DNA of 64,000 nucleotides from Escherichia coli (GCF_011045215.1 NZ_CP049201.1); one strand, 5' to 3'; shown: positions 938 through 30,320, counted from the stretch's first letter. Numbers and translations are program-made. Notes: generated from the letters alone by a model not told the origin.

Positions 938-939
938 GT

Positions 940-2708: not shown

Positions 2709-2716
2709 GAATCTTC

Positions 2717-2887
2717 ATGTTTGTGAAACCTGTTAAAGGGCGGTCAGTTCCTGACCCTGCCCGCGGCGACCTTTTGCCCGCCGAAGGGCGAAATGTTGAC
2801 GAGAACAACTACTGGCTGCGCCGTGAAGCAGCGGGTGATATCCGGCGCGTGAATAAAAAGGTGAATACCGATGACGATAAGCTTTAA
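2717..2887 (+). CDS. small conserved Mu-like phage protein (DUF2635-like, 56 aa)
   Basis: ATG at 2717; MFVKPVKGRSVPDPARGDLLPAEGRNVDENNYWLRR...; overlaps the sheath start; absent from the ORF track because it is under 60 aa. Confidence 0.45.
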   Translation: MFVKPVKGRSVPDPARGDLLPAEGRNVDENNYWLRREAAGDIRRVNKKVNTDDDKL

Positions 2888-5043: not shown

Positions 5044-5127
5044 ACCCCCTTGAACTTCGCCGGACGGCTATTTCCCACTTTGCTGATCTGGAGGCAGAGG
5101 CCGTCCGTATAAATGAGGAGATGAAGC

Positions 5128-7035: not shown

Positions 7036-7059
7036 CGCAGTCCTTTTTGAGGTCAGTCT

Positions 7060-9512: not shown

Positions 9513-10060
9513 TGAGGACGATTGAAGCCATGCAGCGACAACTTCTCGGCCTGATTGGGCGGGCAGTGGTGAAAAGTATCAGCGCCGCCACGAAATGTCA
9601 GACCGTGGATGTGTCCCTGATTGCCGGTGAACCCAAAGCCGGGGTTGAACATCTTGAACCCTACGGTTTTACCGCAAGGGCAAACAGCGGTGCGGAAGCG
9701 GTGGTGTTGTTTCCGGATGGCGACCGTTCTCATGCGGTGGTTGTTACGGTGTCGGACCGGCGCTACCGCCTGAAAGGGCTGCAGACGGGTGAGGTGGCTG
9801 TCTATGACGATCAGGGGCAGTCTGTGACGCTGACCCGGGAGGGGATCGTGGTGGACGGTGCAGGTAAAACGATCACGTTTCGCAATGCGCCCAGAGCACG
9901 TTTTGAAATGGACCTTGAAGTGACCGGACAGGTGAAAGACCTGTGCGACTCCGGCGGCACTACCATGTCAGCGATGCGGCTTGCCTATAACGGGCATCGT
10001 CACAGAGAGAACGGTCAGGGCAGTAACACCGACAAACCTGATAAAGCGATGGAGGCATGA
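9512..10060 (+). CDS. baseplate assembly protein V (spike, Mu gp45-like)
   Basis: 182 aa; position between the hub and gp46-like genes. Confidence 0.7.
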   Translation: MRTIEAMQRQLLGLIGRAVVKSISAATKCQTVDVSLIAGEPKAGVEHLEPYGFTARANSGAEAVVLFPDGDRSHAVVVTVSDRRYRLKGLQTGEVAVYDDQGQSVTLTREGIVVDGAGKTITFRNAPRARFEMDLEVTGQVKDLCDSGGTTMSAMRLAYNGHRHRENGQGSNTDKPDKAMEA

Positions 10061-10485
10061 TGGAACTGTGGCTGACGGTGAACGGTAAACGCACCTGCGC
10101 CAGCGCACCGCTGGATCCGCTGACCCGCGCCGTGGTGATTTCCATGTTTACCTGGCGGCGGGCGGAGCCTGATGACAACGCCGACGTCCCGATGGGATGG
10201 TGGGGGGATACCTGGCCTGCGGTACAGAATGACCGTTACGGCTCCCGACTGTGGCTGCTTCAGCGCAGCAAACTGACCAATCAGCTGGTGCAGACGGTAA
10301 GGGGGTATATCCGCGAATGCCTGCAATGGATGATTGATGACGGCGTGGTGTCCCGTATTGATCTGGATATCCGCCGCACCGGGATTAATGAGCTGGGTAA
10401 CAGTATCACCCTCTGGCGTCGTGACGGACCGATAATGATTTCTTTTGATGATCTGTGGAGTGCGATAACGCATGGCGGACAGTGA
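10057..10485 (+). CDS. phage GP46 family baseplate protein
   Basis: 142 aa; baseplate module position. Confidence 0.7.
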   Translation: MMELWLTVNGKRTCASAPLDPLTRAVVISMFTWRRAEPDDNADVPMGWWGDTWPAVQNDRYGSRLWLLQRSKLTNQLVQTVRGYIRECLQWMIDDGVVSRIDLDIRRTGINELGNSITLWRRDGPIMISFDDLWSAITHGGQ

Positions 10486-11530
10486 ATTTCAGCGCCCGAC
10501 GCTGGCAGAAAATATCAGTATGCTCCGTAACGATTTATTCGCCAGGCTGGACGTCAGCGACACGCTCCGGCGCATGGATGAAGACGTGCGGGCAAAGGTG
10601 TATGCGGCGGCGCTGCATACGGTTTACGGTTACATCGATTATCTGGCAATGAACATGCTGCCTGACCTGTGCGATGAGTCCTGGCTGGCGCGACATGCTG
10701 CGATGAAACGGTGTCCGCGCAAGGGGGCCACGGCTGCCAGCGGGTATATGCGCTGGGAAGGTGTCAGCGATGGCCTGAAGGTGACCGCCGGGAGCGTGAT
10801 TCAGCGCGCTGACCTGGTTCAGTACACGGCAACTGCTGATGCAACCAGCTCCGGTGGTGTCCTGCGCGTGCCGATCACTTGCTCAAGTGCAGGCGCGGTC
10901 GGTAACGCTGACGACGGTACGGCATTAATCCTGGTCACGCCGGTGAATGGTCTGCCGTCTTCCGGTGTTGCAGATACCCTGACTGGCGGATTCGATACTG
11001 AAGATCTGGAAACGTGGCGCGCCCGCGTCATTGAGCGGTATTACTGGACGCCTCAGGGCGGGGCTGACGGGGACTATGTCGTCTGGGCTAAAGAAGTGCC
11101 CGGCATTACCCGCGCATGGACATACCGTCACTGGATGGGAACGGGAACTGTCGGTGTGATGATTGCCAGCAGTGACCTGATTAATCCCATTCCGGAAGAA
11201 TCAACGGAAACGGCGGCAAGACAACATATCGGGCCACTGGCCCCGGTGGCAGGCTCTGATTTGTATGTGTTCAGGCCGGTGGCACATACGGTGGATTTTC
11301 ATATCCGCGTGACGCCGGACACACCGGAAATACGGGCTGCCATCACCGCGGAGTTGCGTTCGTTCCTGCTGCGTGATGGTTATCCGCAGGGAGAACTGAA
11401 GGTATCGCGTATCAGTGAGGCGATTTCCGGTGCGAACGGGGAATACAGCCATCAGTTGCTTGCACCGGCAGACAATATCTCCATTGCAAAAAATGAACTG
11501 GCGGTTCTGGGGACGATTTCATGGACGTGA
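10472..11530 (+). CDS. baseplate J-like protein (Mu gp47 / e14 JayE-like)
   Basis: 352 aa; size and sequence character of the baseplate J family. Confidence 0.85.
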
Positions 11531-12105
11531 CAAACGATGATTACATCCGTCTGTTGTCGGCACTGTTGCCCCCCGGTCCGGCGTGGTCAGCCAGCGATCC
11601 GGCGATTGCCGGTGCGGCACCGTCATTAACCCGTGTTCATCAGCGTGCGGATGCCCTGATGCGGGAGCTGGATCCGCGCACAACCACCGAACTGATAAAC
11701 CGCTGGGAGCGTCTGTGCGGCCTGCCGGATGAATGTATTCCGGCAGGGACGCAGACCCTTCGCCAGCGTCAGCAACGGCTGGATGCGAAGGTTAATCTGG
11801 CGGGCGGCATCAATGAGGATTTTTACCTTGCACAGCTTGCTGCCCTGGGCAGACCAGACGCCACCATCACGCGATACGACAAAAGCACGTTCACCTGCTC
11901 ATCTGCCTGTACTGACGCGGTGAATGCGCCGGAATGGCGGTATTACTGGCAGGTCAACATGCCAGCCGCCACCAACACCACCTGGATGACATGTGGCGAT
12001 CCCTGTGATTCCGCACTGCGTATCTGGGGCGACACCGTAGTCGAGTGTGTGCTTAACAAACTCTGCCCGTCGCATACCTACGTAATTTTTAAATATCCGG
12101 AGTAA
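11521..12105 (+). CDS. YmfQ-like tail protein (DUF2313, Mu gp48-like)
   Basis: 194 aa with a Cys-rich C-terminus; position directly upstream of the tail fibre gene, as in e14. Confidence 0.75.
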
Positions 12106-12108
12106 TCC

Positions 12109-12642
12109 ATGCATCGTATAGACACGAAAACCGCGCAGAAGGATAAGTTCGGCGCGGGTAAGAACGGTTTTACCCGTGGTAACCCCCAGACCGGCACACC
12201 TGCCACCGATCTGGATGATGACTACTTTGACATGTTGCAGGAGGAGCTTTGCAGCGTGGTGGAGGCATCCGGTACCAGCCTGGAGAAGGGGAGGCATGAC
12301 CAGTTGCTTACCGCACTTCGCGCGCTGCTGTTAAGCCGCAAGAATCCGTTTGGCGATATCAAATCGGACGGCACGGTGAAAACGGCTCTCGAAAACCTTG
12401 GTTTGGGAGAAGCGGCAAAACGGGATGTGGGGACAGGGGAAAATCAGATACCGGACATGGCCTCTTTTGCCAGTGGTGATGGATGGATGAAATTACCCAA
12501 CGGGAAAATCCTGCAATATGGTCGTGGTGCGGTTACGCCGACATTATCGACGCAAACAATGAGAATTACATTCAGCATCCCTTTTCCTAAAAAGTGGACT
12601 GCGCCATGCTTACTCATTCTGGTGATGGTGGTGCGCCTTTAG
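12109..12642 (+). CDS. tail fibre protein: constant N-terminal part fused to the currently selected short variable C-terminal part
   Basis: 177 aa; contains the left crossover site encoding ...ENLGLGE...; the variable part may carry a frameshift near 12585-12600 (alternative frame reads ...[26 protein letters not shown]). Confidence 0.7.
12386..12411. repeat. left crossover site of the Pin-type invertible segment
   Basis: CTCTCGAAAACCTTGGTTTGGGAGAA: fits the Gin/Hin/Pin site form (TTNTCNNAAACC-NN-GGTTT...); inverted copy of the site at 14288-14313 (17/18 identical in the shared half). Confidence 0.7.
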
Positions 12643-12791
12643 GTGCTGGGCGGGGATTCGTGATGACCGCAGAAGGCCCAACATTAACCTGTTTTTAATT
12701 CCGCTTACAGAACTGCATCAACCAGTTCCACAGTATCGATGAATTACAGTTGGTGGGCTGTTGGTGAGTAATTTTATTCAGGGTGATTTAT

Positions 12792-13235
12792 ATGAACGAA
12801 TATGTTTATAGCGCAAGGAATAATGCTTTTTCCCTGTGGATATGATTGATAAATATAAATCAGAGGGATGGGATTTATCAGATGCAAAGGAGGTGAATCA
12901 AAATATTATCAGTGAGTTTATGGCTGAACCGCCACAAGGAAAAATCCGTATTGCCGGAGATGATGGGATGCCTGCGTGGGCAGATATTCCTCCACCCACG
13001 CATGAAGAGCTTATTGAAATTACTGAATCAGAAAGACAGCTACTAATTAACCGGGCCAACGAATACATGAACAGTAAATCTGTGGCCCGGTAAAGCCGCT
13101 ATTGGTCGTCTGAAAGATGATGAACTGGCGCAATATAATTTGTGGCTGGATTATCTGGACGCACTGGAGCTGATCGATACTTCCGGTGCGCCAGATATTG
13201 AATGGCCTACGCCTCCGGCAGTTCAGGCCAGATGA
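12792..13235 (+). pseudogene. tail fibre assembly protein (Tfa) disrupted by two frameshifts
   Basis: N-terminus MNEYVYSARNNAFSLWI* (12792-12845), middle segment in ORF 12836-13093, C-terminus ...AAIGRLKDDELAQYNLWLDYLDALELIDTSGAPDIEWPTPPA in a third frame ending at 13233-13235. Confidence 0.55.
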
Positions 13236-13809
13236 CATCCGGCGCGGTGCTGGTATCTGTTGCCGTCACCGCGTCAATGTAATCCAGCACAGCGTTAAGG
13301 CGGGTTGTTTCTGCCTGCGTCAGATTCCGTCCGGCCTGTAATTTCAGTTGAATCAGACTGATGGAGGCCATTGCAGTATGAATCAGCGACTGGCGCAGTG
13401 CTTCTGCTGCATCTACTGCTGCGCCGTGCTGTGCCTCGGTATCTGTCACCCATTTCTCACCATTCCATTTATCGTATGGCGTTAACGGGGCGATAGTGGT
13501 TGTATTTTCAGGATAATCACCCGGAGCTGTGATTTTTTCGATTCTCCTGTTTCGGTGCTATAGACGATTTCACCACGATGATCTGGCACATATTCCCATG
13601 AATTTAAATCTACAGAGCGACAGATTGCATAACCAGCTTTATGTGTAATAAGCATCCAAACAAGAACATGCCGGGATACCGACGCCGACAGCGAGATATT
13701 CAGTTGATGTAGAAATATATTCACGCGTTTCACCATCATAATTATAAATGATAATGTCTCCCGCTTTTATGGCAATGAGTTCACTATTTAATACAGCTTT
13801 ATTCATCAT
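13207..13809 (-). pseudogene. second tail fibre assembly protein (Tfa') disrupted by two frameshifts
   Basis: Starts ATG at 13809 overlapping the fibre stop (ATGA); frame switches near 13640-13660 and inside the T6/A6 tract at 13533-13538; C-terminus ...RLNAVLDYIDAVTATDTSTAPDVIWPELPEA. Confidence 0.55.
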
Positions 13810-14313
13810 GCAGCCCTCACAATATAATTAAAGGCGATGTTACGTGGACGATTTTCATTTGCTGTTGGAACAACATTTGCCGCCGAGAAGTGAACATCTT
13901 GTCGGATTTTTCGGTCATTAGCGTATGTCATAGACACATTGATGTTATTCCGGACTGAGGTACCTCCGTAAAAGCCCCACTCACACTTTGAACATCGACA
14001 ATTGCATTAATTTCGCTGTTTACGCGCAACTGACCAAAACCGCCAGTAATGTTTCGAATAGCATCTCCTTGCGATGAAAGCAGAGTTCGCCCACTATCCA
14101 CACCACGTTCATCATCCCATCCACGAATAAATTCACCGCGTAAATCAGGCAATTTATTTGTCGGGTAAGCCTTTGCCAGTTCCGGGTATTCTTCAGCAGA
14201 AAAAGCCGCACCATTGCATTTCAGCCAGCCTGTTGGCGGAGTGGCTGAAGGCCACGGAACAGGCACCCCAACCCCACATGCTGAGCCTTCTCCCAAACCA
14301 ACGTTTATGAAAA
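13806..14313 (-). pseudogene. alternative tail-fibre variable C-terminal segment (promoterless; joins the constant part after inversion), frameshifted
   Basis: Begins in frame at the right crossover site (...FINVGLGE...); main frame stops at 13928-13930, while the conserved fibre terminus ...EWGFYGGTSVRNNINVSMTYANDRKIRQDVHFSAANVVPTANENRPRNIAFNYIVRAA lies in another frame ending at 13806-13808. Confidence 0.55.
14288..14313. repeat. right crossover site of the Pin-type invertible segment
   Basis: TTCTCCCAAACCAACGTTTATGAAAA; inverted relative to 12386-12411; 55 bp upstream of the invertase start. Confidence 0.7.
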
Positions 14314-14367
14314 TGCAGAAATAACGAGCAAATGGCATCATTCCTGCTTTTGTCAGGGAGATCTACC

Positions 14368-15850
<1,483 letters not shown>

Positions 15851-18069: not shown

Positions 18070-18115
18070 ATTCGTAATGCGAAGGTCGTAGGTTCGACTC
18101 CTATTATCGGCACCA
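18070..18115 (+). tRNA. partial tRNA-Thr (thrW) 3' fragment (pseudo-tRNA / att core)
   Basis: ATTCGTAATGCGAAGGTCGTAGGTTCGACTCCTATTATCGGCACCA equals the 3' 46 nt of thrW as recalled; the 5' half is replaced by unrelated sequence. Confidence 0.7.
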
Positions 18116-18280
18116 TTTCAACGTCTTTTCCCGTCTATTAAAATCCAAAAAACCCGCATATACTCTAGCTTTGAGCGCCCCCGATAGTGTTTTAACGTCT
18201 ATCAATATCTCCTAAAATCCACGTCTTTTGGGGGTATATTCGGGGGTATATGCTGTGTGGGCTACTGGAGATACCCCCAA

Positions 18281-19471
18281 ATGAAACTAAATGCCCGTCA
18301 GGTCGATACGGCCAAACCGAAAGAAAAACCCTATAAACTGGCCGATGGTGGTGGGCTTTATCTGCTTGTTAATCCCAATGGTTCCCGGTACTGGCGTTTA
18401 AAGTACCGGGTAGCCGGAAAAGAAAAGCTGTTGGCGCTGGGGGTATATCCCGATGTAACCCTGGCTGATGCCAGGGCGAAACGAGATGAGGCCAAAAGGG
18501 GTATGGCTGGGGGGATCGACCCGAACGAAGCGAAGCGGGAAGAAAAATTGAACCGCGAAGCGCAAATCAAAAACACCTTCGAAGAAATCGCCAGAGAGTG
18601 GCATACAGAACGGCAGAAGAAATGGTCTGAGGGGTACGCCTCGGACATTCTGGAAGCATTCAGTAAAGACATATTCCCTTGGATTGGAAAACGCCCCATC
18701 ACGGAAATAAAGCCCCTTGATTTGCTGAATACGCTTAAACGCATCGAGAATAGGGGAGCGACTGAAAAGGCCCGTAAGGTTCGCCAGTGGTGCGGGGAGG
18801 TCTGGAAGTATGCGATCGTTACCGCCCGCGCAGAATATAACCCCGCCCCTGATCTATCTGTGGCTATGGAAGGACACGAAGGGGAGCACTTCCCCCATCT
18901 GGAAGCCGAAGAGTTACCCGAATTTTTCCAGACGCTGGCGACGGCAAAAAGTAACGTTCAGGTTATTTTGGGGCTGCGTCTGCTTATTCTTGTGGGGTTA
19001 CGTCCGGTTGAATTACGCGCGGCCCCGTGGTCAGAGATTGATTTTGATAATGCCTTGTGGGAGATCCCCAAAGAGCGAATGAAGAAAAGACGTCCGCACG
19101 TTGTCCCGCTTTCTCGCCAGGCTATGGTTATTCTCGGGCAATTAAAAGAGTTGTCGGGCCGCAATCCTTTCATTTTTCCGGGCCGGAACGACCCGCGAAA
19201 GCCAATGAGTGAAGGAGCAATTAATCAGCTAATAAAGCGACTCGGGTATAAGGGCAAAGCTTGCGGGCATGGTTTCCGACATACCATGAGCACAATTTTG
19301 TATGAGAAAGGGTATAACACCGAATGGATCGAAACCCAGCTTGCACATGTTGATAAAAATACCATCCGTGGCACATATAATCATGCCCGCTATCTGGATG
19401 GACGCCGGGAAATGCTTCAATGGTATGCCGACTATATGGAATCGCTGGCGAGTGGCAGGGTAAAAGATTAG
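18281..19471 (+). CDS. P4-type tyrosine integrase
   Basis: MKLNARQVDTAKPKEKPYKLADGGGLYLLVNPNGSRYWRLKYR... is the canonical P4/CP4 integrase N-terminus; C-terminal HxxR...Y catalytic region present; lies 165 bp after the thrW fragment. Confidence 0.9.
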   Translation: MKLNARQVDTAKPKEKPYKLADGGGLYLLVNPNGSRYWRLKYRVAGKEKLLALGVYPDVTLADARAKRDEAKRGMAGGIDPNEAKREEKLNREAQIKNTFEEIAREWHTERQKKWSEGYASDILEAFSKDIFPWIGKRPITEIKPLDLLNTLKRIENRGATEKARKVRQWCGEVWKYAIVTARAEYNPAPDLSVAMEGHEGEHFPHLEAEELPEFFQTLATAKSNVQVILGLRLLILVGLRPVELRAAPWSEIDFDNALWEIPKERMKKRRPHVVPLSRQAMVILGQLKELSGRNPFIFPGRNDPRKPMSEGAINQLIKRLGYKGKACGHGFRHTMSTILYEKGYNTEWIETQLAHVDKNTIRGTYNHARYLDGRREMLQWYADYMESLASGRVKD

Positions 19472-19547: not shown

Positions 19548-20041
19548 TATCATTTTCAATGAATTATGATTTTGGAAATTTTATAAAAAACACCAAGATT
19601 ACTAATCTATTGATTAATATGAAATATTTCTTTTTTTGATTATTAATTGTGCTCTTGATTGTTGTTTTTATGGTGTTAATTTATAAAAATCTTATTTATA
19701 GGAATTAACATTATATAGTTGGCACTTTTTGCTAAAATCTGTTTTTATTGTGTTTTATTTTTATTTCATTTTTGTTGTTGTTTGTTTGATTTTTAGTGTC
19801 TTTATATCTGGCTAATTGATTTCACTCAAACCATAAATCCTTTCAGAGGCTTCTAGAGTCTTCCTGAGGCTTAAATTGACTTAACTAAAAGTCAAGCCCC
19901 ACATCCCACATACATCTTTTTGACATGCACTTATGGCGTGAATAACAATGACTTCATCCAATCTACAGGCATCCTATAAAGTCAATGTCTGTATATAGAA
20001 AGATATTACATAACGTTTGAATGTTAATAGCGGGTGTGAAT

Positions 20042-20260
20042 ATGAGAAATGATGCAATGCAGCTTTTAAACCAGGGAAAAAGATTGATCCGCCTGCCTGA
20101 AGTTATGATGCTTACGGGGCGGTGTCGCGCCAGTATTTATAAAGATATCAATGCAAATGTCTTTCCAAAGCCGATTAAAACCGGCCCGCGTTCTGTCGCA
20201 TGGGTTGAGGGTGAGATCAGCGACTGGATCGACAACAAAATCAAAGAGCGCAAAGTGTAA
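20042..20260 (+). CDS. alpA: AlpA-family phage regulatory protein (excisionase-like)
   Basis: ...RLIRLPEVMMLTGRCRASIYKDINANVFPKPIKTGPRSVAWVEGEISDWI... matches the AlpA pattern; start is ambiguous (20042 or 20057). Confidence 0.75.
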   Translation: MRNDAMQLLNQGKRLIRLPEVMMLTGRCRASIYKDINANVFPKPIKTGPRSVAWVEGEISDWIDNKIKERKV

Positions 20261-20459
20261 ATCTGATTTTATTCAGAGATGAATATGATTTATTTGAATG
20301 CTAAGGATTTTGTGTATTCTTTTTGTTGTAAATACTCGTAGCATGGGGAGTTGGCAGTATTTATTCAGTATTAGGTTAAGTAGTGATAAAATACCAGGTA
20401 ATGCCGGTTTATGCAGTGTTTAATATATTTGTTGCTGGCGAAAATTTACGGAAAATTAA

Positions 20460-21332
20460 ATGAACATTACTGATATTATCAGCCATCGCGTATATCGTGA
20501 TGCGGATCTTGCTGTCATTAATAACACGGCATTTATTCAGCCTTATGACGGTTGTCACCGTGGGTTGTATGAAATGCGCGTTATTGAACTTTATCGCCTG
20601 AATAAAATGATGCACCTTACCCACGAATATAAATCTATTTCCGGGGAAAGCGTAGGCATTCCGGCGACTAAAGAGGAACTGTTTACACTGGTTAATAAAG
20701 GGCATGAACTTTGCCAGTCTGAACGGGAAAAGCTGGCGGCACTTGAAGCAGAATTGCAGCGTCTGCCAAGCCCGGCTGTAATTCCTGCGCCGCAGACGAT
20801 TAAAGAAGCACAGCAGGCCCGTAAATCACTAGAAGATGAAAGATACAGACTGCATCACGCAGCAATTAAAAATCAAGTCAAAGCACAGCAGGAAGAGTTA
20901 TCCATCAGACAAAACATTCTGGAATTGCTCGCGCCGGTTATTGATGTGTTGTTGGCCGTGGAAGATGTGGAACTGCTCGATCTGCGCCGTTCCCTGCCTA
21001 AGTCATCCCTCGATGCTAAGGCATTCAAAAAGGCGATTTCTGAAATTGAGTGTGCTGACCTTGCCTGGCAGAAAATGGATAAACTGGAGATTGCCCTTAA
21101 CAAGGTGGTGAACAACTGCACATATCGCCCGGAAGGAAGCATTAATCCCCGTTTTGTTAACCCTCTTAATGAAGATAAGCGGGAACGCGCCGAAATATCA
21201 CGCGATTATTACAGCTCTGAAATGGCCTTTATTCATACGGTGATGAGTGCAGATGAATATTTAAATTATATGTTGCCGATCCGTCACCAGCAGCGCGCGC
21301 AACGACTCACATTAGAAAGAAATATCAACTAA
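20460..21332 (+). CDS. hypothetical coiled-coil protein (possible capsid scaffold / size-determination factor)
   Basis: 290 aa with a long Gln/Glu/Leu-rich heptad-like central region; immediately upstream of, and on the same strand as, the capsid-like gene. Confidence 0.45.
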   Translation: MNITDIISHRVYRDADLAVINNTAFIQPYDGCHRGLYEMRVIELYRLNKMMHLTHEYKSISGESVGIPATKEELFTLVNKGHELCQSEREKLAALEAELQRLPSPAVIPAPQTIKEAQQARKSLEDERYRLHHAAIKNQVKAQQEELSIRQNILELLAPVIDVLLAVEDVELLDLRRSLPKSSLDAKAFKKAISEIECADLAWQKMDKLEIALNKVVNNCTYRPEGSINPRFVNPLNEDKRERAEISRDYYSSEMAFIHTVMSADEYLNYMLPIRHQQRAQRLTLERNIN

Positions 21333-21341
21333 GGAAGAATT

Positions 21342-22349
21342 ATGTCTTATGTAACACCAGATTATTTAACGCAGTATCACGAAAACCTGATTAAGTCTTT
21401 TAATATTAAATATAAAAACGAAGATACGGGGTATTTCACCATATCACAGCCGGAAAAAGCATCTCCGGATGCATGGGGATGTTCCACGCTTGATGTTAAA
21501 GGCTCGTCCTGGCTGATTGATAATATTTCATTACTGGACATTATCGGTGCGGATGGCACGACGATCACCATCGGTGATGGTTCCCTTTATACAGGCCGTG
21601 CAAAGGAAGGTCGCTTTCATAAGAAACTAAAAACCAACGGAACACCTTTTTTATTATCAGAAACGGATTCCTGCGCCTCATTGACTTATGAAGAAATGGC
21701 GGTAATGGCAAACGCGAAAAATTTCAGTAATGAAATGATCATTTTTTTCAAGAAGGCCGTGGTGCGGGATATGCTCCGTATTGGATTTAACGGCAAGATG
21801 ATTGCCGAAAATACCAACCCGGAACAATATAAAAACGGCGAAGATATCAATATTGGCTGGCACTCGCTGGCAAAAACATTCAATAACGGTTCACAAATTA
21901 TTTCTGATGCTTTCGCACTGGGGAAAGGCGGTGATTTTGCCGATGTTCACGATCTGGCTGATTGCCTCATCACGTCAAAAATCCCCGAAGGTCAGCGCGA
22001 AGATCCGGGCCTTGTGGTGATGGTTGGCGCGCAACTTGCCGCCCGCGAACGACTGAAACTGTTCAACATGGCCGATCAACCACTGACGCTGACGGCGGGG
22101 GATATGCTGACAAGCAGTGTCGCCGGTCGCTTTGCTTTTATCCCGCCGTTTATGCCGGGTAAGCGCCTGGCTGTTACGACGCTGAAAAATTTGCAGATCC
22201 TGACGCTGAAACACAGCCAACGCTACCGCGCGGAGGATATCCCGCAACGAGGTGTTTATGAGCATGGCTATTTACGTGAGGAAGGTTACGCGCTGGGGGA
22301 TGGCTATCTTTACGCGGCCAGCGATGAGAACGCCGTAACGCTGGTTTAA
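21342..22349 (+). CDS. P2 GpN-family major capsid protein homologue
   Basis: Segment LGKGGDFADVHDLADCLITSKIPEGQREDPGLVVMVGAQLAA parallels P2 gpN VGKGGDYASLDALVMDATNNLIEPWYQEDPDLVVIVGRQLLA (recalled from memory); FNGKM... also parallels gpN FNGVK... Confidence 0.6.
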   Translation: MSYVTPDYLTQYHENLIKSFNIKYKNEDTGYFTISQPEKASPDAWGCSTLDVKGSSWLIDNISLLDIIGADGTTITIGDGSLYTGRAKEGRFHKKLKTNGTPFLLSETDSCASLTYEEMAVMANAKNFSNEMIIFFKKAVVRDMLRIGFNGKMIAENTNPEQYKNGEDINIGWHSLAKTFNNGSQIISDAFALGKGGDFADVHDLADCLITSKIPEGQREDPGLVVMVGAQLAARERLKLFNMADQPLTLTAGDMLTSSVAGRFAFIPPFMPGKRLAVTTLKNLQILTLKHSQRYRAEDIPQRGVYEHGYLREEGYALGDGYLYAASDENAVTLV

Positions 22350-22561: not shown

Positions 22562-22753
22562 CTATTCCTTTGCCTTTTTGCGCTGTTCTGCTTTCAGCTT
22601 GCGCCCGCAGGCATCCAGCACCCAAGCGGAAAAACTTGAACCCGGATTATCGACTTTTTCGCGTTCTACGCAGGCATCAATTTCTGCGATCATTTCATGC
22701 GGGAAGCGTATTCCCTTGTATGTTGTTTTGCTGTTTATGTGGTTTTTAGTCAT
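22562..22753 (-). CDS. putative small DNA-binding regulator (ribbon-helix-helix-like), about 63 aa
   Basis: MTKNHINSKTTYKGIRFPHEMIAEIDACVEREKV... has RHH-like strand-helix character; divergent from the downstream operon with operators between; start codon uncertain (M15/M24/M33 of the track ORF). Confidence 0.45.
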   Translation of the reverse strand: MTKNHINSKTTYKGIRFPHEMIAEIDACVEREKVDNPGSSFSAWVLDACGRKLKAEQRKKAKE

Positions 22754-22769
22754 GCTGGAAACTCTTAAG

Positions 22770-22870
22770 TGTTTAAACATCAGTAAAGATACAGTAAAGC
22801 CGGACATAACAAAACTGTTTAAACAAAATCTGTTGACTTGTTTAAACACTCAGCATAATGTGTTTAAACA
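22770..22870. promoter_or_regulatory. operator array: four copies of the palindrome TGTTTAAACA within divergent promoters
   Basis: Exact copies at 22770-22779, 22816-22825, 22839-22848 and 22861-22870; TTGACT (22833-22838) and CATAAT (22854-22859) hexamers interleave with the right-hand pair. Confidence 0.6.
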
Positions 22871-22960
22871 GTTTGCTACGTTGCAAACTGAAAAAACGAA
22901 GCCCGGCAGTGTTGACGCACTAACCGGGCCTCTGACCAACACGTTATTAGGAGTAACGCT

Positions 22961-23164
22961 ATGGCTAGCCATCAGTGTAACCAAACTCGCCCTAAAAATC
23001 GCCTATTTCTCTTTCTCGCGGTATCACGGGCCGACATGCAGGACAAACCACACCGCGAACAAATCACCGCGTACAGCGAACAGGAAGCCCGTTCCATGCT
23101 GGCCGGTCGCTTTATCCTCTGCTTTGCTGGCCGTCTGCCGGTTCAGGAGGTGCACCATGTTTAA
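22961..23164 (+). CDS. hypothetical protein (67 aa), first gene of the coupled operon
   Basis: AGGAG 7-8 nt upstream of the ATG; stop overlaps the next start (ATGTTTAA). Confidence 0.4.
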   Translation: MASHQCNQTRPKNRLFLFLAVSRADMQDKPHREQITAYSEQEARSMLAGRFILCFAGRLPVQEVHHV

Positions 23165-23405
23165 CCCACTGGACAACCGCAAAGCGGCGGCGCTTAACCC
23201 GTTCCACGATGACTGTTACGATCCGCCAGCCTTTATTAAACCGGGTTCAAAAGTAGTGGTTGAAATTGATTCCCGGGAAATGGAGGTCGCTATTCTAGCC
23301 GCTTATGACTACGGACTGGACGCGCTGAACGACGATGGCCGGGAAGAGCTTAACCGCTTAATTGCTGACCTGAAAGACAAGATAACGGAGGCGCGGTATG
23401 CATAA
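23158..23405 (+). CDS. hypothetical protein (82 aa)
   Basis: Strong SD (caGGAGGtg) before the ATG at 23158; acidic protein; the rest of track ORF 22455-23405 is rejected. Confidence 0.55.
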
Positions 23406-23823
23406 TCTGCTTAATTCACCGTTGCCAGTGTCTATGGATCTCTTTCAGGCTGGCGAGATGTGCGGGCATTTTGTCGCGCGGTTAACGGATGAAAGTTGTG
23501 TTGACGAGACTGAACGCGTCGCACTTTGCGGACGTCTGGCTTTTGCCCTGCGTTCTCTTTCATCTCTTTGTGATACAGACTATCCATCGCATATCCAGGC
23601 GCAATTAACCGCGACTGCTATTCCTGCTCCCTGCGTACCTGATGAGTGGATCGACGCGACGATCATGACGGGCTATTGCACCGCCTTAAATGATGCGCTG
23701 CTTAGTCGCTCCCTTCGTATGGACGTTGAAACACAATTACGCTGGCTTTTGCATGACATGATTAATTTACTTGTCAGATATCTGAAACAGCCTTGTATTA
23801 AGGCGGGAGTAGATCATGTCTGA
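23398..23823 (+). CDS. hypothetical protein (141 aa)
   Basis: Start overlaps the previous stop by 8 nt; Cys-containing; no known motif. Confidence 0.55.
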   Translation: MHNLLNSPLPVSMDLFQAGEMCGHFVARLTDESCVDETERVALCGRLAFALRSLSSLCDTDYPSHIQAQLTATAIPAPCVPDEWIDATIMTGYCTALNDALLSRSLRMDVETQLRWLLHDMINLLVRYLKQPCIKAGVDHV

Positions 23824-24214
23824 AATTATGCTCACACCGTTTCACGTTGACCGCCATTTTTACGATCTGGTTTACGGTGCTTCATTTTTTGCGGATGCAT
23901 TACCTGCAATGAATGATATCAAGCAGCAGCGGCTTTATTGTCGATTATTGCAATTAAATCTGGTTGTTTTATTTGAAAAACGGTCGCGGGATATTCCCCC
24001 AATTCAGTCGAGTAAAATAAAAATCGCTGATGAGGTTATATTTCTTAATGTCGATAATATTTATCATGCGCTTTCCCTGACTGCCGGGCTGATAAGTCAG
24101 GATATCAGTAAGGGGATGGAAAAAGAACTGGCTGAATATATCAGGGATATTATTAGTATTATTTTTAATGAAATGCGAATGCAGATGGTTGATTATGATC
24201 CATATGAAATGTGA
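23816..24214 (+). CDS. hypothetical protein (132 aa), AT-rich gene
   Basis: Start overlaps the previous stop by 8 nt; composition shifts to AT-rich. Confidence 0.5.
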   Translation: MSEIMLTPFHVDRHFYDLVYGASFFADALPAMNDIKQQRLYCRLLQLNLVVLFEKRSRDIPPIQSSKIKIADEVIFLNVDNIYHALSLTAGLISQDISKGMEKELAEYIRDIISIIFNEMRMQMVDYDPYEM

Positions 24215-24310: not shown

Positions 24311-24580
24311 ATGTCTGATTTGAATACCATTGCTGTTAATAGTGCTGAAAAATATCTTAGCCTTGAGTGCTTCCATAAACTCAACCGCGCAAGGAATGTT
24401 TCATTCCAGATGCATTTACAGATCCGTCAGTGTGAGATAAACGGCCTGCCACTTTTATGGATTCCAGATATTTTCAGCTATATCAGCGAAGACATATCCG
24501 CCGTTCTGGAAGAAGCCAAAGTACTTGGCCTTTGCGATAAGTTCACAGGCGAAGCCCGGATCGGTCAGGTCAGTCTTTAA
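24311..24580 (+). CDS. hypothetical protein (89 aa)
   Basis: Same strand, between the coupled operon and the primase gene. Confidence 0.45.
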   Translation: MSDLNTIAVNSAEKYLSLECFHKLNRARNVSFQMHLQIRQCEINGLPLLWIPDIFSYISEDISAVLEEAKVLGLCDKFTGEARIGQVSL

Positions 24581-24643
24581 TTTTTTGTATTCCGCGCCGC
24601 CCGCTGCGGCGCATTGTCTTACCCATTAATAAAGGTCATACCG

Positions 24644-27376
24644 ATGCAAGGTAAAAAAGTTTCACAGACAGCAGGACGCGCGGCGGGCCAGTGGGAAAAT
24701 ATTCTTGAACACCTGGGGATTACTGTTCCTGCGGGTGGTCTTCATGGCCCCTGCCCGATCTGCGGCGGTAAAGATCGTTTTCGCTTTGATAATAAAAAAG
24801 GGCGTGGAACCTGGTTCTGCAACCAGTGCGGCCACGGTGACGGGCTGGATCTGGTCAAACTGGCGCTTTCGCTGGACACCGGGCCAGCCGCTGATCGAGT
24901 TGCTGAATTACTTCCGGCCCTTCCTCCGCCTGCGGTCATGCAGCCTGCCAGAAAAGAAGCCAGTGACGAAGGTCGCCCACATGACTACTGGCAACGCCTC
25001 TTTGCCCGTACTCAGCCGGGGGAAAGCCCTTACCTTACGGCGCGGGGGCTGACAGGTTTTGAACTGCCGCTGACCGTTCAGGAGATGAAAACCGCTGGCG
25101 GTGTTTTTCCGGCTGGTTCGCTTTTATTACCGATCACGGACACCGAAGGACGGATGACCGGTGCACAGCTTATCGGCCCGGACAAGGTAAAAGGCTTATG
25201 TGCTGGCACCAGGAAAAAAGGGCGTTTTATCTCTGTCGGGCCGTTCCCGGAGAAAATGCCCGCGCGGATCATTATCTCGGAAGGCTTTGCCACTGCGTTA
25301 AGCGCATCCCTGCTTTCAGAGGGCTGGAGTATTGCGGCGCTGGATAAAGGCAACCTGAAAGACGTTGCGGAGCAAATCCGCCAGAAATGGCCGGACGTGC
25401 AGATCGTTATTGCCGGTGATAATGACTTTTCTGACGGTAAACCCAATCAGGGGAAAGAGTCTGCGATCAAAGCTGCACTGGCCGTTAAGGGATGGATGAC
25501 CATTCCTCCCGGACGGATCAAAGTTGACTGGGATGATTACCGCCGTGAATTTGGCCTCCAGCGCGCCCGTGACGCATTCGCGGAAGAACTGCTTAACCCG
25601 GCAGACACCGAAACGCGTTTACCGCATGGTTTCCGCCTGACGAAGGATTATCTTTGGTTTGATCGCCCGCTCAGTGACGGTAGCGAAAGCGGCCAGACTC
25701 GCCAGGTGAAGATATGTAGCCCGCTCAAAGTGACGGCCATCACCAGCGACGGCGAAGGCGGTAAATTCGGGCGTCTGCTTGAGTGGGAAGACTCCAGCGG
25801 ATTACGGCATGAATGGGCGATGCCAATGACAGTGCTTGCCGGAAGCGGTCAGGAGCTGCGGGAGGTTCTGCTTGATAACGGAATGCACTTTATCAGCGTG
25901 AACGGCGCGGCGCGTAGCTATCTGATGGAATACATTTCTAACTGTCGCCCGGTTCGCCGCGTCACCTGCGTTGAAAAAACAGGCTGGTTTAGCGGTGCGT
26001 ATGTTCTCCAGGATGAGGTGATCGGCAGCGATGCCGGATCGGTCATCCTCCAGTCTGCTATGTCGTCTAAAAATGACTTCCGGGTGAGCGGAACGGTGGC
26101 GGAATGGGCGCAACACGTCGGGCGCTATTGTGCCGGAAATTCCCGCCTGGTGTTCTGCGTCAGTCTGGCGCTGGCCGCGCCGTTACTGAATATTATTGGT
26201 GTTGGCGGCGGCGGTTATCACCTTAAGGGCGAATCCACGGACGGCAAGACAACCACAATGAAGGTAGCGGCGTCTGTCTGCGGCGGGCCTGATTTCTGGA
26301 AAACGTGGCGGGCAACCGGAAACGCGCTGGAAGGTATTGCGCTACGCCGTAATGATGCCGCCCTGATGCTGGATGAAATCAGCGAAGTTGACGGCAGAGA
26401 GGCTAGCCGGATCGCCTATATGCTGGGGAACGGGCAGGGCAAAGCAAGGGGGCGCGTTGATGGCAGCGTCCGCGATCCGGTGACCTGGACATTGCTTTAC
26501 CTGTCCACCGGGGAAATCTCTATTGCGGAACATGCCGCCGAAGCCGGAGAAAAGCGAACCGGCGCGGGTGTCGGTGTGCGTATGGTGCAAATCCCCAGCG
26601 ATACCGGAAAACATGGCGCTTTCGAAAATCTCCACGGCATGGAAGGCGGTAAAGCGTTTGCGGAATACCTTGAACAGACCTGTAAACAATATTACGGCGC
26701 GCCGTTCCGCGAATGGTTGCGCTGGCTGGCGGCAAATCTGACGGAAACCGCGAACCGGGCGCGGGCAATGAAAAAAGAGTATGAACGGACATTATTACCC
26801 GAAGATTCCGGCAAGCAGGTTGGGCGCATTGTGGATCGCTTTGCACTGTTGGCCGTTGCGGGGGAACTGGCGAGTGAAGCGGGGATCACAGGCTGGCAAC
26901 CAGGAGAAGCGTATAACGCTGCAAGAAGCTGTCTGGCGGCATGGCTTAACGATCGTGGACATGCGGCCAACCAGGAAGAAGCCGACGCGCTGGAGAAGGT
27001 GCGGCGCTTTATTACGGCCAATCAGTACACACGCTTTGCTGACTGGTATGACGAGAAAAACCGCCCGTCAAATATGGTTGGCTTTCGCCGGGTGGAGAAA
27101 GGCGGGAACGGTATTGGCATGAGCAAAAAGGAGAACAGCGGCGATACTGTTAAAGACGGGGACGCCACTAAAGAGCCGGAAACCACATTTTATATCCTGC
27201 CCAGCGGATGGAAGGAAATTTGCGGGACGTCGGACAGCGTTAAAACGGCGAGACTATGCGACGAGGCTGGATGGCTTGTAAAGGATGAAGATCGCCAGCG
27301 CCTACAACGTACAGTAAGACTACCGGAAATTGGCTTAAAGAAAGTGTATGTGTTCAGCGGCGAAGTGATCGGATAA
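24644..27376 (+). CDS. P4 alpha-type DNA primase/helicase (zinc-binding, Toprim and P-loop helicase domains)
   Basis: CPICGGKDRFRF...WFCNQCGHGDG zinc motif; Toprim-like IISEGFATALSA...IAGDNDF; Walker-type region further downstream; true start ATG 24644 (the track ORF begins at a TTG). Confidence 0.9.
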   Translation: MQGKKVSQTAGRAAGQWENILEHLGITVPAGGLHGPCPICGGKDRFRFDNKKGRGTWFCNQCGHGDGLDLVKLALSLDTGPAADRVAELLPALPPPAVMQPARKEASDEGRPHDYWQRLFARTQPGESPYLTARGLTGFELPLTVQEMKTAGGVFPAGSLLLPITDTEGRMTGAQLIGPDKVKGLCAGTRKKGRFISVGPFPEKMPARIIISEGFATALSASLLSEGWSIAALDKGNLKDVAEQIRQKWPDVQIVIAGDNDFSDGKPNQGKESAIKAALAVKGWMTIPPGRIKVDWDDYRREFGLQRARDAFAEELLNPADTETRLPHGFRLTKDYLWFDRPLSDGSESGQTRQVKICSPLKVTAITSDGEGGKFGRLLEWEDSSGLRHEWAMPMTVLAGSGQELREVLLDNGMHFISVNGAARSYLMEYISNCRPVRRVTCVEKTGWFSGAYVLQDEVIGSDAGSVILQSAMSSKNDFRVSGTVAEWAQHVGRYCAGNSRLVFCVSLALAAPLLNIIGVGGGGYHLKGESTDGKTTTMKVAASVCGGPDFWKTWRATGNALEGIALRRNDAALMLDEISEVDGREASRIAYMLGNGQGKARGRVDGSVRDPVTWTLLYLSTGEISIAEHAAEAGEKRTGAGVGVRMVQIPSDTGKHGAFENLHGMEGGKAFAEYLEQTCKQYYGAPFREWLRWLAANLTETANRARAMKKEYERTLLPEDSGKQVGRIVDRFALLAVAGELASEAGITGWQPGEAYNAARSCLAAWLNDRGHAANQEEADALEKVRRFITANQYTRFADWYDEKNRPSNMVGFRRVEKGGNGIGMSKKENSGDTVKDGDATKEPETTFYILPSGWKEICGTSDSVKTARLCDEAGWLVKDEDRQRLQRTVRLPEIGLKKVYVFSGEVIG

Positions 27377-27419: not shown

Positions 27420-27700
27420 GGCCCTGGAAACATAGCCAGCCAGGAAGAAGTGATCGCACGTATCATATTTTTTAGTGGAAACAGTGGGAACATAGGGAAC
27501 AGACTTGATTTATAAAGGTTTTATTTGTTCCCAATTACTGTTCCCATATGGTAACAGGTGGTAATGTATTTTAAATCATATGGTTATGTTGATATGCAAA
27601 GCGTTGTTCCCAGTTGTAAAAGAGAGATGGGAACAGGAAAAAGGTATAAATATCAACACTGTTACCATTGTTCCCACTGTTTCCACCATTTTTGACAATA
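27420..27700. repeat. iteron cluster (GGGAACA / TGTTCCC heptamers), putative replication origin or cis replication region
   Basis: At least 7 exact copies in both orientations plus variants (GGAAACA, TGTTACC, TGTTTCC) within about 280 bp directly after the primase gene; resembles P4 ori/crr TGTTCACC iterons. Confidence 0.55.
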
Positions 27701-27724
27701 ACAATATTTAATTTCGGGGAAAAT

Positions 27725-27741
27725 GCTTTTCCCTGGCTGGC
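27725..27741. repeat. 17-bp direct repeat, left copy (GCTTTTCCCTGGCTGGC)
   Basis: Exact copy of 30005-30021; lies 20 bp upstream of the P2-like integrase start. Confidence 0.5.
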
Positions 27742-27760
27742 TAACATCAAAGGTAAAGAA

Positions 27761-28726
27761 ATGAGCATTAAGAAACGTCCTGATGGAAAATGGCTGGTAG
27801 ATATGCGGCCCGCAGGTCGTAAAGGAAAACGTATTCGCAGGGTTTTTAACAGGAAATCGGAGGCCCTGGCATTTGAGATGTATTACCTGGTCCGTTCTCA
27901 ATCGCCGGAATGGGCAACGAACTTCACAGACCGCAGATTATTAAGCGATTTGCGTAAAACATGGTGGGACCTGTTTGGACACGCCAGAAATAACGCAGAA
28001 ACTGAAAAGCGCCAGCTTGATAAAACCATCCGGCAGATGGGAGATCCACCAGTTAACCGGCTTACAATCCGCTTCATTCTGGAATTCAGAGCAGGCCGTG
28101 TTTCAGGGAAATTAAAGGCATCCACGATAAATCGCGATATGTACCGGTTATCAGGCATGTTTACCGAATTAATTAAAGCAGGTGAGTGTAAAAATAATCC
28201 GTTCCGTAGTCTTGAACCGTTAAAGGAAGAACCTTCCGCAGTAACGTTTCTGACCCACGAAGAAATTAGCATGTTACTGGAAAAACTGGAGGGAGATTCG
28301 CGTAAGCTGGCGTTACTGTGTCTTAATACTGGGGCGCGTTTCAGTGAAGCCGCGAATCTAACGGCTGAAATGGTTAACAACCGTCGTGTAACGTTTATTA
28401 AGACAAAGAACGGGAAGCAGCGGACAATACCCATTTCATCTGAACTCGAAAAGGAAATAAAAACAAAAAATTCAGGTCAACTTTTCACGGTGGATTATAA
28501 ATGGTTTTCCCGCAGGTTGAAGGCAATCAAACCGGATTTACCGGATGGACAGGCAACGCATGTATTACGACATACTTTCGCCAGTCATTTCATTATGAAT
28601 GGGGGAAATATTGTTGTATTAAAAGAGATTCTTGGACATGCCAATATTCAGCAAACTATGATTTATGCACACTTTGCGCCTGAATTTCTGGCGCAGGCTG
28701 TAACATTGAATCCATTTAGTAAGTAA
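27761..28726 (+). CDS. P2-like tyrosine integrase
   Basis: MSIKKRPDGKWLVDMRPAGRKGKRIRRVFNRKSEALAFE... parallels P2 Int MAIKKLDDGRYEVDIRPTGRNGKRIRRKFDKKSEAVAFE (from memory); C-terminal HxLRHTFASHF...Y region present. Confidence 0.85.
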   Translation: MSIKKRPDGKWLVDMRPAGRKGKRIRRVFNRKSEALAFEMYYLVRSQSPEWATNFTDRRLLSDLRKTWWDLFGHARNNAETEKRQLDKTIRQMGDPPVNRLTIRFILEFRAGRVSGKLKASTINRDMYRLSGMFTELIKAGECKNNPFRSLEPLKEEPSAVTFLTHEEISMLLEKLEGDSRKLALLCLNTGARFSEAANLTAEMVNNRRVTFIKTKNGKQRTIPISSELEKEIKTKNSGQLFTVDYKWFSRRLKAIKPDLPDGQATHVLRHTFASHFIMNGGNIVVLKEILGHANIQQTMIYAHFAPEFLAQAVTLNPFSK

Positions 28727-28754: not shown

Positions 28755-29012
28755 CTAACGTTGAAGTAATTCTTTCATGACCGTTTTTTGTTCCGGCGTC
28801 ATCATGTCAATCATTGTTTTTACTGCTTTATCCCCAGTCAGAGCGCTGGGGCTTAGCGTATGGGAGAACGTCATATTCATAACGAAGGTATGCCCACATT
28901 CAACATTATTACAGGCACAATACATATCAGACAGGTGGGGATGCTTGCGCACTGTCTTTTTTGTTGTTGAATTACTTCCACACTCAGGACAAACAATTTT
29001 ATGGCTGCGCAT
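28755..29012 (-). CDS. Ogr/Delta-family zinc-finger transcriptional activator
   Basis: CPECGSNSTTKKTVRKHPHLSDMYCACNNVECGHTF: a CxxC...CxxxxC zinc finger typical of P2 Ogr / P4 Delta; convergent with the integrase, 28 bp apart. Confidence 0.8.
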   Translation of the reverse strand: MRSHKIVCPECGSNSTTKKTVRKHPHLSDMYCACNNVECGHTFVMNMTFSHTLSPSALTGDKAVKTMIDMMTPEQKTVMKELLQR

Positions 29013-29430
29013 AATAATCACCACTCGTAAAAGGCGCATTATTATACCACTATTTGCATTAAACAAAAAAAAGAAATTGATATAAATTATCAATAATATC
29101 ATCGTGTTATGTCATTCCATTCTTTCTTTGCTTTTAACTTAGTGTCACGCAATTTGATTTTTTTTGTTTTAATTTTCATATGGTTACGTTATTTTGATTA
29201 AAGATTGAATTTTACGATGACTGTAATTATTGAAATCCTTTTCAACTGATTGCATTTTTTTCAGTCTCAAATTTCATGTAAAACCCCGTTTAACGCCTGT
29301 TCTGGCGCTTCTTTCCTGCAATTTTCCAAACTGAAAAAATTCTCACTACGTAAACACCGTGGGCGTGCGGGTGAGCGCGGTTTTGGTCCCGCTGGCGTTT
29401 GCGTCGTAACAAGTCAGAAACATACAACCA

Positions 29431-29495: not shown

Positions 29496-29741
29496 ATGCA
29501 ACACGTAAACTATACCGATGCTCGACAGCATTTAGCTGACCTGATGCAGCAGGCTAATGATGATCGTGCGCCAATCCTGGTTACGCGTAAGGGTGCTAAA
29601 AGCGTAGTAATGATCGATGCGGAAGAGTTCGCATCGATTCAGGAAACGTTACACCTGTTCAGTAACCCGGCGAACGCCGCACACATTGAAGCCAGCCTTG
29701 CATCGCTCGAACGCGGCGATTATGAGGAACTGGACATTTAA
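29496..29741 (+). CDS. type II antitoxin, Phd/YefM family
   Basis: 81 aa; ...RAPILVTRKGAKSVVMIDAEEFASIQETLHLFSNPANAAHI... matches the YefM pattern; 1-nt overlap with the toxin gene. Confidence 0.85.
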   Translation: MQHVNYTDARQHLADLMQQANDDRAPILVTRKGAKSVVMIDAEEFASIQETLHLFSNPANAAHIEASLASLERGDYEELDI

Positions 29742-30001
29742 TGAAAGTCAGGATATCCCCGCAGGCAAAAGGCGATCTTCAGTACTGGGCTGAGAATGAC
29801 CCAAAGACGTATAACAAGGTAATGGAGCTAATCAAATCGGCTAAGGAAAGCCCCTTCAAGGGGATAGGGAAGCCGGAGGCGCTAAAGCATCGTAAGCCGC
29901 TTTGGTCACGTCGAATCACGAAAGAACATCGCCTGGTGTATTACGTTGAGCAAGGCGATCTGTACATTGTTGCGTGTCGCTATCACTACACCACGATTTA
30001 A
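29741..30001 (+). CDS. type II toxin, YoeB/Txe family mRNA interferase
   Basis: 86 aa; ...GIGKPEALKHRKPLWSRRITKEHRLVYYVEQGDLYIVACRYHY is the conserved YoeB C-terminus. Confidence 0.85.
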   Translation: MKVRISPQAKGDLQYWAENDPKTYNKVMELIKSAKESPFKGIGKPEALKHRKPLWSRRITKEHRLVYYVEQGDLYIVACRYHYTTI

Positions 30002-30021: not shown

Positions 30022-30320
30022 GGGTTTACCTTAACTTTGCCAGCACTGTTTAAACGCCCGCCGCTCTCTCCCAAATACAGTATAAAAAGCAATCAATTAT
30101 TGTGGACGTAAAAGCGCATGGGGGTACAATTGGGGGTACGTTGGTTATCCATTATGTAATAAATTCATAATAAACATGGTGTTATATTGCATGTTTAACT
30201 CTTATTATCTACCCCATATTCAAATACACCACGTTTCCTCCTGTGCCGTATTTATGCCATTGTAACCCTGGCAATTAATCAAAATACTGTTCTGACATCA
30301 GGCAATGCAGGTGCAGACAT

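Follow-up and report, generated by a model that had tools for sequence, protein, structure and literature searches.

The window analysed in this study, i.e., a whole stretch of 64,000 nucleotides (nt) from the genome of Escherichia coli (NZ_CP049201.1 in GCF_011045215.1), contains an open reading frame (ORF) for a protein of 290 amino acids (aa), which we call X, and the next gene on the same strand encodes a homologue of gpN, the major capsid protein of phage P2 (Table 1). In the initial annotation of this region, X was described as a Gln/Glu/Leu-rich coiled-coil protein and, from its place before the capsid-like gene, as a possible scaffold or size-determination factor. The ORF is indeed present as annotated, and the distance from the end of gene X to the ATG of the capsid gene is exactly the 9 nt that had been claimed. 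What was absent from that annotation is the location of the two genes in a P4-like satellite and not in a phage.

The two genes are closely joined; namely, the ribosome-binding site of the capsid gene, AGGAAG, overlaps the TAA stop codon of gene X (junction sequence: CTAAGGAAGAATTATG). This arrangement suggests that gene X and the capsid gene are co-transcribed, and translation of the latter is probably coupled to that of the former. The downstream product was also rightly called GpN-like: it is a full-length major capsid protein of the P2 family, which matches PF05125 over residues 10-327 of 335 with an E value of 1.2e-54 and phrog_70 with an E value of 3.7e-72. Given that its score against TIGR01551 (157 bits) is below the equivalog cutoff of 219.65, this homologue is a divergent member of the family. 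Its identity is 24% to P2 gpN, 41% to the capsid proteins of Quadragintavirus (ESSI-2-like), and 46% to the capsid protein (P0168) of a peduovirus-like element, L021. In view of this last value, an element of the L021 type is a candidate helper of the satellite. L021 itself (E. coli contig JANFEN010000034.1) has ParM/StbA partition genes beside gpA as well as a complete head module, and is possibly a phage-plasmid.

Gene X is a conserved gene

When 5.8 billion proteins were searched, 31 close relatives of X with identities of 79-99% were found in Escherichia and Salmonella, nearly all of them being exactly 290 aa long. An exhaustive HMMER search of 1.84 billion representative proteins gave 20 clusters of distant homologues, all of which are full length except for one fragment of 46 aa; the length across the family is thus 278-308 aa with a median of 286 aa. 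Furthermore, dN/dS values of 0.14-0.24 were obtained against the two E. coli orthologues for which DNA sequences were available, showing that gene X is under purifying selection. X is hence a real gene, neither a chance ORF nor a remnant. One might still suppose a non-functional ORF, arisen by chance or in decay, because the exact element is rare, 3 of 5426 complete E. coli genomes having near-identical copies, which are inserted at tRNA-Thr downstream of proA, and also because no right-hand att copy was found in the window. The purifying selection, the full-length family conserved across Enterobacterales, and the confident structure prediction described below nonetheless leave next to no probability for this explanation, which is essentially refuted by the conservation.

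The start codon is annotated in two ways in RefSeq, namely, at Met39 (252 aa, WP_143365243.1) and at Met1 (290 aa, WP_489699702.1), and the conflict concerns positions 20460-20573 in the window and 6505-7263 in the related locus L001. Because residues 1-38 are conserved across the X family, we prefer the start of the 290-aa protein over the 252-aa start in RefSeq.

Protein X is helical and represents a new family

The AlphaFold model of X, which was calculated with a deep and diverse alignment, has a predicted local distance difference test score (pLDDT) of 85.5 and a predicted template modelling score (pTM) of 0.79, and is composed of 13 helices and no strands. A first model built from close homologues only (pLDDT 53) was discarded in favour of this deep-alignment model. 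Two long helices in the centre, residues 71-101 and 124-155, flank a proline-rich and poorly conserved loop. The description of X as helical is therefore correct, but the richness in Gln, Glu, and Leu holds for the central part alone; residues 71-178 contain 16.7% Leu, 13.9% Glu, and 8.3% Gln, while Gln amounts to only 4.8% of the whole protein. Similarly, the claim of a coiled coil is in part borne out, since the central region gives weak sequence matches in PDB to tropomyosin, keratin, and lamin (E 0.02-0.14), and coiled-coil families of Pfam are weakly matched by single members of the X family; the confident model, however, shows a defined fold with no single long rod.

Conservation within the family is concentrated in the blocks of residues 31-50 (with the motif RVIEIYRL), 151-160 (GLLxLL), and 201-270 (W..M..LE.A, C..P.DKY.LN.GG, and YY), and R40, E43, E73, Y250, and Y251 are sharply conserved in the family alignment. 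The blocks 31-50 and 201-270 are modelled with block-mean pLDDT values of about 91-96, dropping to 67-68 over residues 221-240. The central helical pair (71-155) is variable in sequence, yet it aligns with few indels across the family.

Searches for relatives of known function gave essentially nothing. With a Pfam cutoff as loose as E<=10, X was still unmatched; PHROGs and PADLOC gave no match either, and the lone match of X in NCBIfam, of 16 bits, was meaningless. No consistent match was obtained in a Pfam scan of all 23 members of the X family, and ten distant members scanned singly against the libraries were equally blank. Isolated library matches to YlbO (0.0077), DUF4618, phrog_25815, and phrog_6880 were dismissed as weak and compositional. 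Sequence searches of PDB returned coiled-coil noise, whether X itself or the profile of its family was the query, the best E value being 0.017.

We also compared the 23-sequence alignment of X directly with the known assembly proteins of P2 and P4 by using hhalign. The probability was 0.2% for P4 Sid, 0.22% for a 13-sequence profile of Sid, 0.3% for P4 Psu, 0.25% for the gpO of ESSI2, and 0.33% for a gpO profile of four phages; the value of 7.6% for P2 gpO came from a compositional match of coiled-coil segments. Probabilities of 0.2-7.6% agree with the impression by eye in the initial annotation that X has no direct similarity to Sid or gpO. This comparison, of the HHpred type called for in the initial annotation, thus revealed no homology to Sid, Psu, or gpO, so that the scaffold identity is not supported by homology. 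Homology to an unrelated family such as a regulator or a nuclease, the outcome that had been set against the scaffold idea, was likewise found in none of the libraries searched.

The model of X, furthermore, has no fold match among solved structures or viral folds, and X is a new protein family without recognisable fold relatives. In AFDB50, the model matches 17 proteins, all of 252-340 aa and all but one labelled uncharacterised, and those with a stated organism are all from Enterobacterales, i.e., Salmonella, Escherichia, Citrobacter, Xenorhabdus, Yersinia, Enterobacter, Cronobacter, and Intestinirhabdus. A tblastn search of 50,697 phage records with X gave no match. No relatives of X were found in a scan of IMG/VR. 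The full X alignment is too divergent to serve in pattern scanning, and a single-pattern scan of public genome contigs hit Pectobacterium carotovorum and Yersinia aldovae only.

A capsid gene follows gene X in every readable satellite locus

Genomic contexts were gathered from distant homologues of X (21-26% identical) and, independently, from relatives of the capsid homologue. Of the independent satellite loci in which the sequence downstream of X could be read (the window, L001, L002, L003-5, L006, L007, L010 (partial), L011, L012 (partial), L013, L016, L018, and L020), 13 of 13 have a P2-family capsid gene directly 3' of gene X. L018 and L020 were located by way of the capsid homologue, and the unannotated genes upstream of their capsid genes, encoding proteins of 290 and 311 aa, were found to belong to the X family with E values of 3e-72 and 2e-55, respectively. 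While the X-bearing loci differ in their integrases, regulators, and cargo, the capsid neighbour is constant.

In true peduoviruses (P2, ESSI2_ev015, L015, and L021), the slot before the capsid gene is occupied by gpO, and no X is present. A hidden Markov model (HMM) of gpO indeed finds gpO in the phages and its N-terminal domain in L005, L011, and L016, but never X. We also considered “Salmonella phage S.Kent 1-2-1” as a packaged satellite; this is an ordinary peduovirus fragment with gpO and was rejected. As the HMM matches indicate, three of the satellite lineages (L003-5, L011, and L016) are equipped with an extra gene for the N-terminal protease domain of gpO just 3' of the capsid gene (Table 1). 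These stand-alone domains retain the positions aligned with D19, H48, and S107 of P2 gpO, the proposed catalytic triad of that protein, and are devoid of the C-terminal scaffolding half (roughly 90-110 residues); the gene is broken in L003 (two ORFs) and L004 (118 aa, truncated). Because the scaffolding half is lacking, the scaffolding function is missing from this module unless it is supplied by X or by a helper.

X also evolves much faster than its neighbours. While primases of different lineages are 54-68% identical and the capsid homologues 47-60%, the identity is as low as 21-26% for X. Rapid change in sequence at a constant length and helicity is typical of scaffolding and size-determining proteins, and the traits of phage scaffolds as a functional class, namely, an all-helical protein, a gene adjacent to that of the capsid protein, and fast divergence, are all seen in X.

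The host element is a P4-like satellite without Sid and Psu

The element of about 12.1 kilobases (kb) that hosts the pair holds five of the seven core components defined for P4-like satellites (PMC8628076), i.e., the integrase, AlpA, epsilon, the alpha primase, and Delta/Ogr, and the missing two are Sid and Psu. Indeed, neither Sid nor Psu was found in the window or in any X-bearing locus by searches that recovered the P4 controls; the HMM of Sid scores 1e-130 on the P4 control, and phmmer with Psu retrieves the P4 control alone. Over its primase domain, the alpha-type primase has an identity of 37% to P4 alpha (E 7e-49). The match of the Ogr/Delta-like protein to P4 Delta is weak (E 2e-5), and the real Ogr/Delta gene is probably the 258-bp stretch at 28755-29012. 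The 19-nt cohesive end (cos) of P2/P4 was absent with up to 3 mismatches allowed, a different peduovirus cos site being possible. Since the size of the satellite is about one third of a peduovirus genome of 30-33 kb, a small capsid would fit it.

The left end of the satellite is marked by the 3' 46 nt of a tRNA-Thr gene, and no complete tRNA was detected in the window by ARAGORN. As only these 46 nt are present, the satellite lies in tandem behind another island at the thrW site. The island ahead of the satellite contains a prophage, an AraC-like gene, and a fragment of an insertion sequence, and an integrase fragment is seen near 30253-30272.

Regarding the transcription of the pair, alpA overlaps or abuts gene X in most of the distant relatives, which suggests a single alpA-X-capsid operon; in L003, L006, L010, and L011, the gene immediately before X matches PF05930. 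In the window, alpA and X are separated by a spacer of 199 nt (20261-20459). This spacer holds a dyad, GTATT-N12-AATAC (20314-20335), which has the spacing of the Ogr/Delta box with other half-sites and may be due to chance.

Possible roles of X

Taken together, the chances are in our judgement about even that X is a satellite-specific partner of the satellite's own capsid protein in capsid morphogenesis, which would act like a scaffold and might set the size of the capsid. The original idea of a scaffold or size factor is accordingly supported by the context, i.e., the adjacency in all 13 loci, the slot of gpO, the absence of Sid and Psu, the lone gpO protease domains, and the all-helical, fast-evolving, and length-conserved nature of X, but not by homology or fold. 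It is from this association of genes that we infer a physical interaction between X and the capsid protein, a scaffold role, and the control of size.

In such a scheme, the satellite without Sid and Psu would not cage the gpN of its helper externally but would make its own capsid protein from the alpA-X-capsid unit. X may bind this capsid protein via the conserved N- and C-terminal helical blocks, and the variable but length-conserved helical pair in the centre might be a spacer or an oligomerisation element. X would then nucleate assembly and steer it into a shell suited to a genome of about 12 kb, thereby taking over the scaffolding job that is done by the C-terminal half of gpO in peduoviruses. 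A peduovirus similar to Quadragintavirus or HP1 is a more probable helper than P2 itself and would give the portal, the terminase, the head completion proteins, and the tail, and the maturation protease would also come from the helper in the case of the element in the window. More broadly, and as a tentative proposal that we would not yet expect to hold, X and the gpN-like protein may represent undescribed “minimal capsid-forming” P4-like satellites, in which Sid and Psu are replaced by an own shell plus a scaffold or size protein of a new fold, and in some lineages by a gpO protease domain without the scaffold half, while the portal, terminase, and tail are stolen from a peduovirus helper. 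If this is true, X would be a third, independent solution for capsid size in the world of P2 and P4, beside the internal gpO and the external Sid.

Several observations weigh against X as a capsid-morphogenesis partner. First of all, the adjacency of gene X and the capsid gene shows linkage and not function. No similarity of X in sequence or fold was found to Sid, Psu, gpO, or other known scaffolds, and a gene or remnant of the gpO protease domain was not found in the element of the window. Also, a loose structure and poor conservation are seen in many scaffolds, and X, with its confident, defined fold and sharply conserved motifs, is less scaffold-like than those. The C-terminal tail of X is weakly basic with a mean net charge of about +1, and hence no capsid-binding basic hairpin of the P22 type is evident. 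The canonical Ogr/Delta box, TGT-N12-ACA, was recovered in the P4 controls, but 12 of the 13 satellites, including that of the window, lack it ahead of alpA or X; late co-expression with the structural genes of a helper is therefore not demonstrated. Finally, the distance matrix of X correlates with that of the capsid gene no better than with those of the primase or AlpA, although this mirror-tree correlation is uninformative because one close group dominates.

As the distance matrices do not single out the capsid gene, X might have a function unrelated to the capsid (replication control, excision, partition, or anti-phage activity) and be merely co-inherited with it. One homologue of X in UniProt (A0AAW5MJF2) is even named “DNA replication terminus site-binding protein”; this name is unsupported, however, with no match to Tus or to any other entry in NCBIfam, Pfam, or PDB. 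The search of PADLOC was negative as well, and X is always accompanied by the capsid homologue in the 13 loci despite the shuffled neighbours. We thus regard an unrelated function as rather improbable.

Alternatively, X may be directed to the helper as an interference or regulatory factor, which would sequester gpN, gpO, or the portal of the helper, leaving the capsid protein of the satellite as the only one to assemble, or alter the late expression of the helper as Psu does by acting on Rho. The well-defined fold of X and its few invariant charged and aromatic residues, which resemble a specific binding site, would be consistent with this alternative, and so would the location of X in the alpA operon beside regulatory genes. 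A helical satellite protein with both regulatory and capsid roles has a precedent in P4 Psu (PMC11718236), and helpers are commonly hindered by satellites (PMC6893505). We consider such a factor unlikely on the whole, but if X does target the helper, it would be a new interference protein.

Comparison with known systems

P4 is the textbook satellite: it has no virion genes of its own and makes the capsid of its helper smaller with Sid, an external cage on gpN procapsids that changes the triangulation number from T=7 to T=4. Sid and its paralogue Psu resemble X in that they are satellite-encoded, all-helical, of similar size (Sid, 244 aa), without phage relatives, and located on a P4-like backbone; moreover, Sid and X are both candidate factors for forming small capsids out of a P2-type capsid protein. 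Sid is, nonetheless, expressed from the sid-delta-psu operon behind TGT-N12-ACA, whereas X follows alpA without such a box and the Ogr/Delta gene is 7 kb off on the other strand. Also, Sid acts on the gpN of the helper while X is paired with a capsid protein encoded by the satellite, and the elongated strut of Sid differs from the defined fold predicted for X.

X shares with P2 gpO the position of its gene directly upstream of, and on the same strand as, a P2-family capsid gene. The two proteins are similar in length (284 aa in gpO and 290 aa in X), and a helical Glu/Leu/Gln-rich region is present in both. In contrast, gpO (PF05929) has an N-terminal serine protease domain (Phage_GPO_N) that X lacks, and gpO is found in phages while X is absent from phage records; there is no homology between them.

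Satellites that carry their own homologue of a helper-type major capsid protein are known among the phage-inducible chromosomal islands (PICIs), and those of SaPIbov5 (Ccm), PmCI172, and EcCICFT073 are implicated or suspected in satellite-sized capsids (PMC6893505, PMC6092414). These elements are PICIs and not P4-like, PmCI172 being compared by description only. Ccm is without a described dedicated partner like X, and EcCICFT073 has a lambda-type capsid protein with a decoration gene downstream. EcCICFT073 was also checked as a carrier of an X-like gene and has none.

Because EcCICFT073 pairs its major capsid protein with a head decoration protein, it is conceivable that X is a decoration or cementing protein, which would stay on the small capsid and stabilise it as Psu does on P4 or the decoration protein on the head of EcCICFT073. 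The X-bearing elements have no Psu, so that a stabiliser may be needed. Known decoration proteins, however, are small, with about 110-190 aa, and many of them are rich in beta structure or form knotted dimers; X, with its 290 aa, matches none of them. Furthermore, the decoration gene of EcCICFT073 is downstream of the capsid gene, whereas gene X is upstream, i.e., in the position of a scaffold. A decoration protein is hence a distinctly improbable identity of X.

According to a preprint, capsid-forming PICIs (cf-PICIs) encode all proteins for their own small capsids and steal the remaining parts (bioRxiv 10.1101/2022.09.08.507074). Capsids made from own proteins are what we propose for the X-bearing satellites as well. 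The cf-PICI set is a full head and packaging module composed of the capsid protein, protease or scaffold, portal, adaptors, and terminase, while the X lineage adds to its P4-like backbone no more than X and the capsid protein, joined in some cases by a protease domain.

In surveys, P4-like elements are described as having no virion proteins and little in common with phages (PMC8628076). Our literature search, the coverage of which left out most subscription journals, gave no description of X or of P4-like satellites that carry a capsid gene of the P2 family. The system is satellite capsid redirection, which is known, but the pair of X and the capsid protein on a P4-like backbone is new. There is, namely, a branch of the P4 backbone in which the place of Sid and Psu is taken by a capsid gene together with its conserved orphan partner. 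This branch is not rare, as the number of member sequences in related capsid clusters amounts to 410 for P0122 of Salmonella and 618 for P0123 of E. coli. If X is a factor for assembly or size, the pair would be a compact two-gene system for examining how a P2-type capsid protein is steered in size, and X would add a new fold to scaffold biology; also, X together with the gpN-like protein would serve as a marker pair for finding satellites that detectors keyed to sid and psu may miss or class as incomplete.

Other features of the satellite and its surroundings

The features of the window are summarised in Table 1 together with the stand-alone gpO domains of the other satellite loci.

Table 1. 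Coordinates of the features in the window and of stand-alone gpO domains in related satellite loci
Feature	Coordinates	Strand	Remarks
Prophage head protein fragment	37-687
Prophage sheath	2871-4367
Prophage tape measure	5128-7035
Prophage Mu-like baseplate	7060-11530
Prophage tail fibre	from 12109
Tail-fibre C-terminus ORF	13928-14341	opposite orientation
Hin/Gin-type invertase	14332-14922
Partial tRNA-Thr	18070..18115	+	3' 46 nt; att-type copy; left end of satellite
P4-type tyrosine integrase	18257..19471	+	phrog_1 7e-74; NF007246 3e-91, below cutoff; RefSeq
AlpA-family regulator or excisionase	20021..20260	+	phrog_2790, phrog_66; RefSeq “AlpA family transcriptional regulator”
Gene X	20460..21332	+	ATG start; 290-aa ORF; subject of this study
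P2-family (gpN-like) major capsid protein homologue	21342..22349	+	335 aa, full length
YlcI/YnfO gene	22562-22849	opposite strand	ORF; annotated gene shorter
Icd-like gene and three small ORFs	about 22960-24214
Epsilon-like helper-derepression protein	24311..24580	+	45% identity to P4 epsilon, E 8e-21; RefSeq “Derepression protein”
P4 alpha-type primase/helicase	24614..27376	+	phrog_1139 3.5e-167; DUF927
Extra P2-phage-like integrase	27668-28726
Ogr/Delta-like zinc-finger late activator	28755..29102	-	phrog_603 7e-32; RefSeq “ogr/Delta-like zinc finger family protein”
YefM/YoeB toxin-antitoxin pair	29496-30001
Stand-alone gpO N-terminal domain	L005 2587-3096; L011 10877-11410; L016 about 11864-12403		169-177 aa

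The slot to the right of Ogr/Delta is variable. It is occupied by YefM/YoeB in the window (29496-30001), by Kiwa KwaA/KwaB in L003 (15476-16858), by GmrSD in L018 (13070-14626), and by a DUF3800 gene in L011 (16155-17045). This cargo slot looks like a defence hotspot similar to that of classical P4-like satellites.

Positions 1-14922 of the window belong to a myovirus prophage and make up its late region. Since the prophage has a head other than that of the P2 family, it is no obvious helper of the satellite. The invertase adjoins the oppositely oriented ORF for a tail-fibre C-terminus, an arrangement that suggests a host-range segment capable of inversion. Two adjacent ORFs on the - strand (14868-15805) are located between this invertase and the AraC-like gene, and the upstream one (15383-15805) starts with a motif that resembles GIY-YIG by eye.

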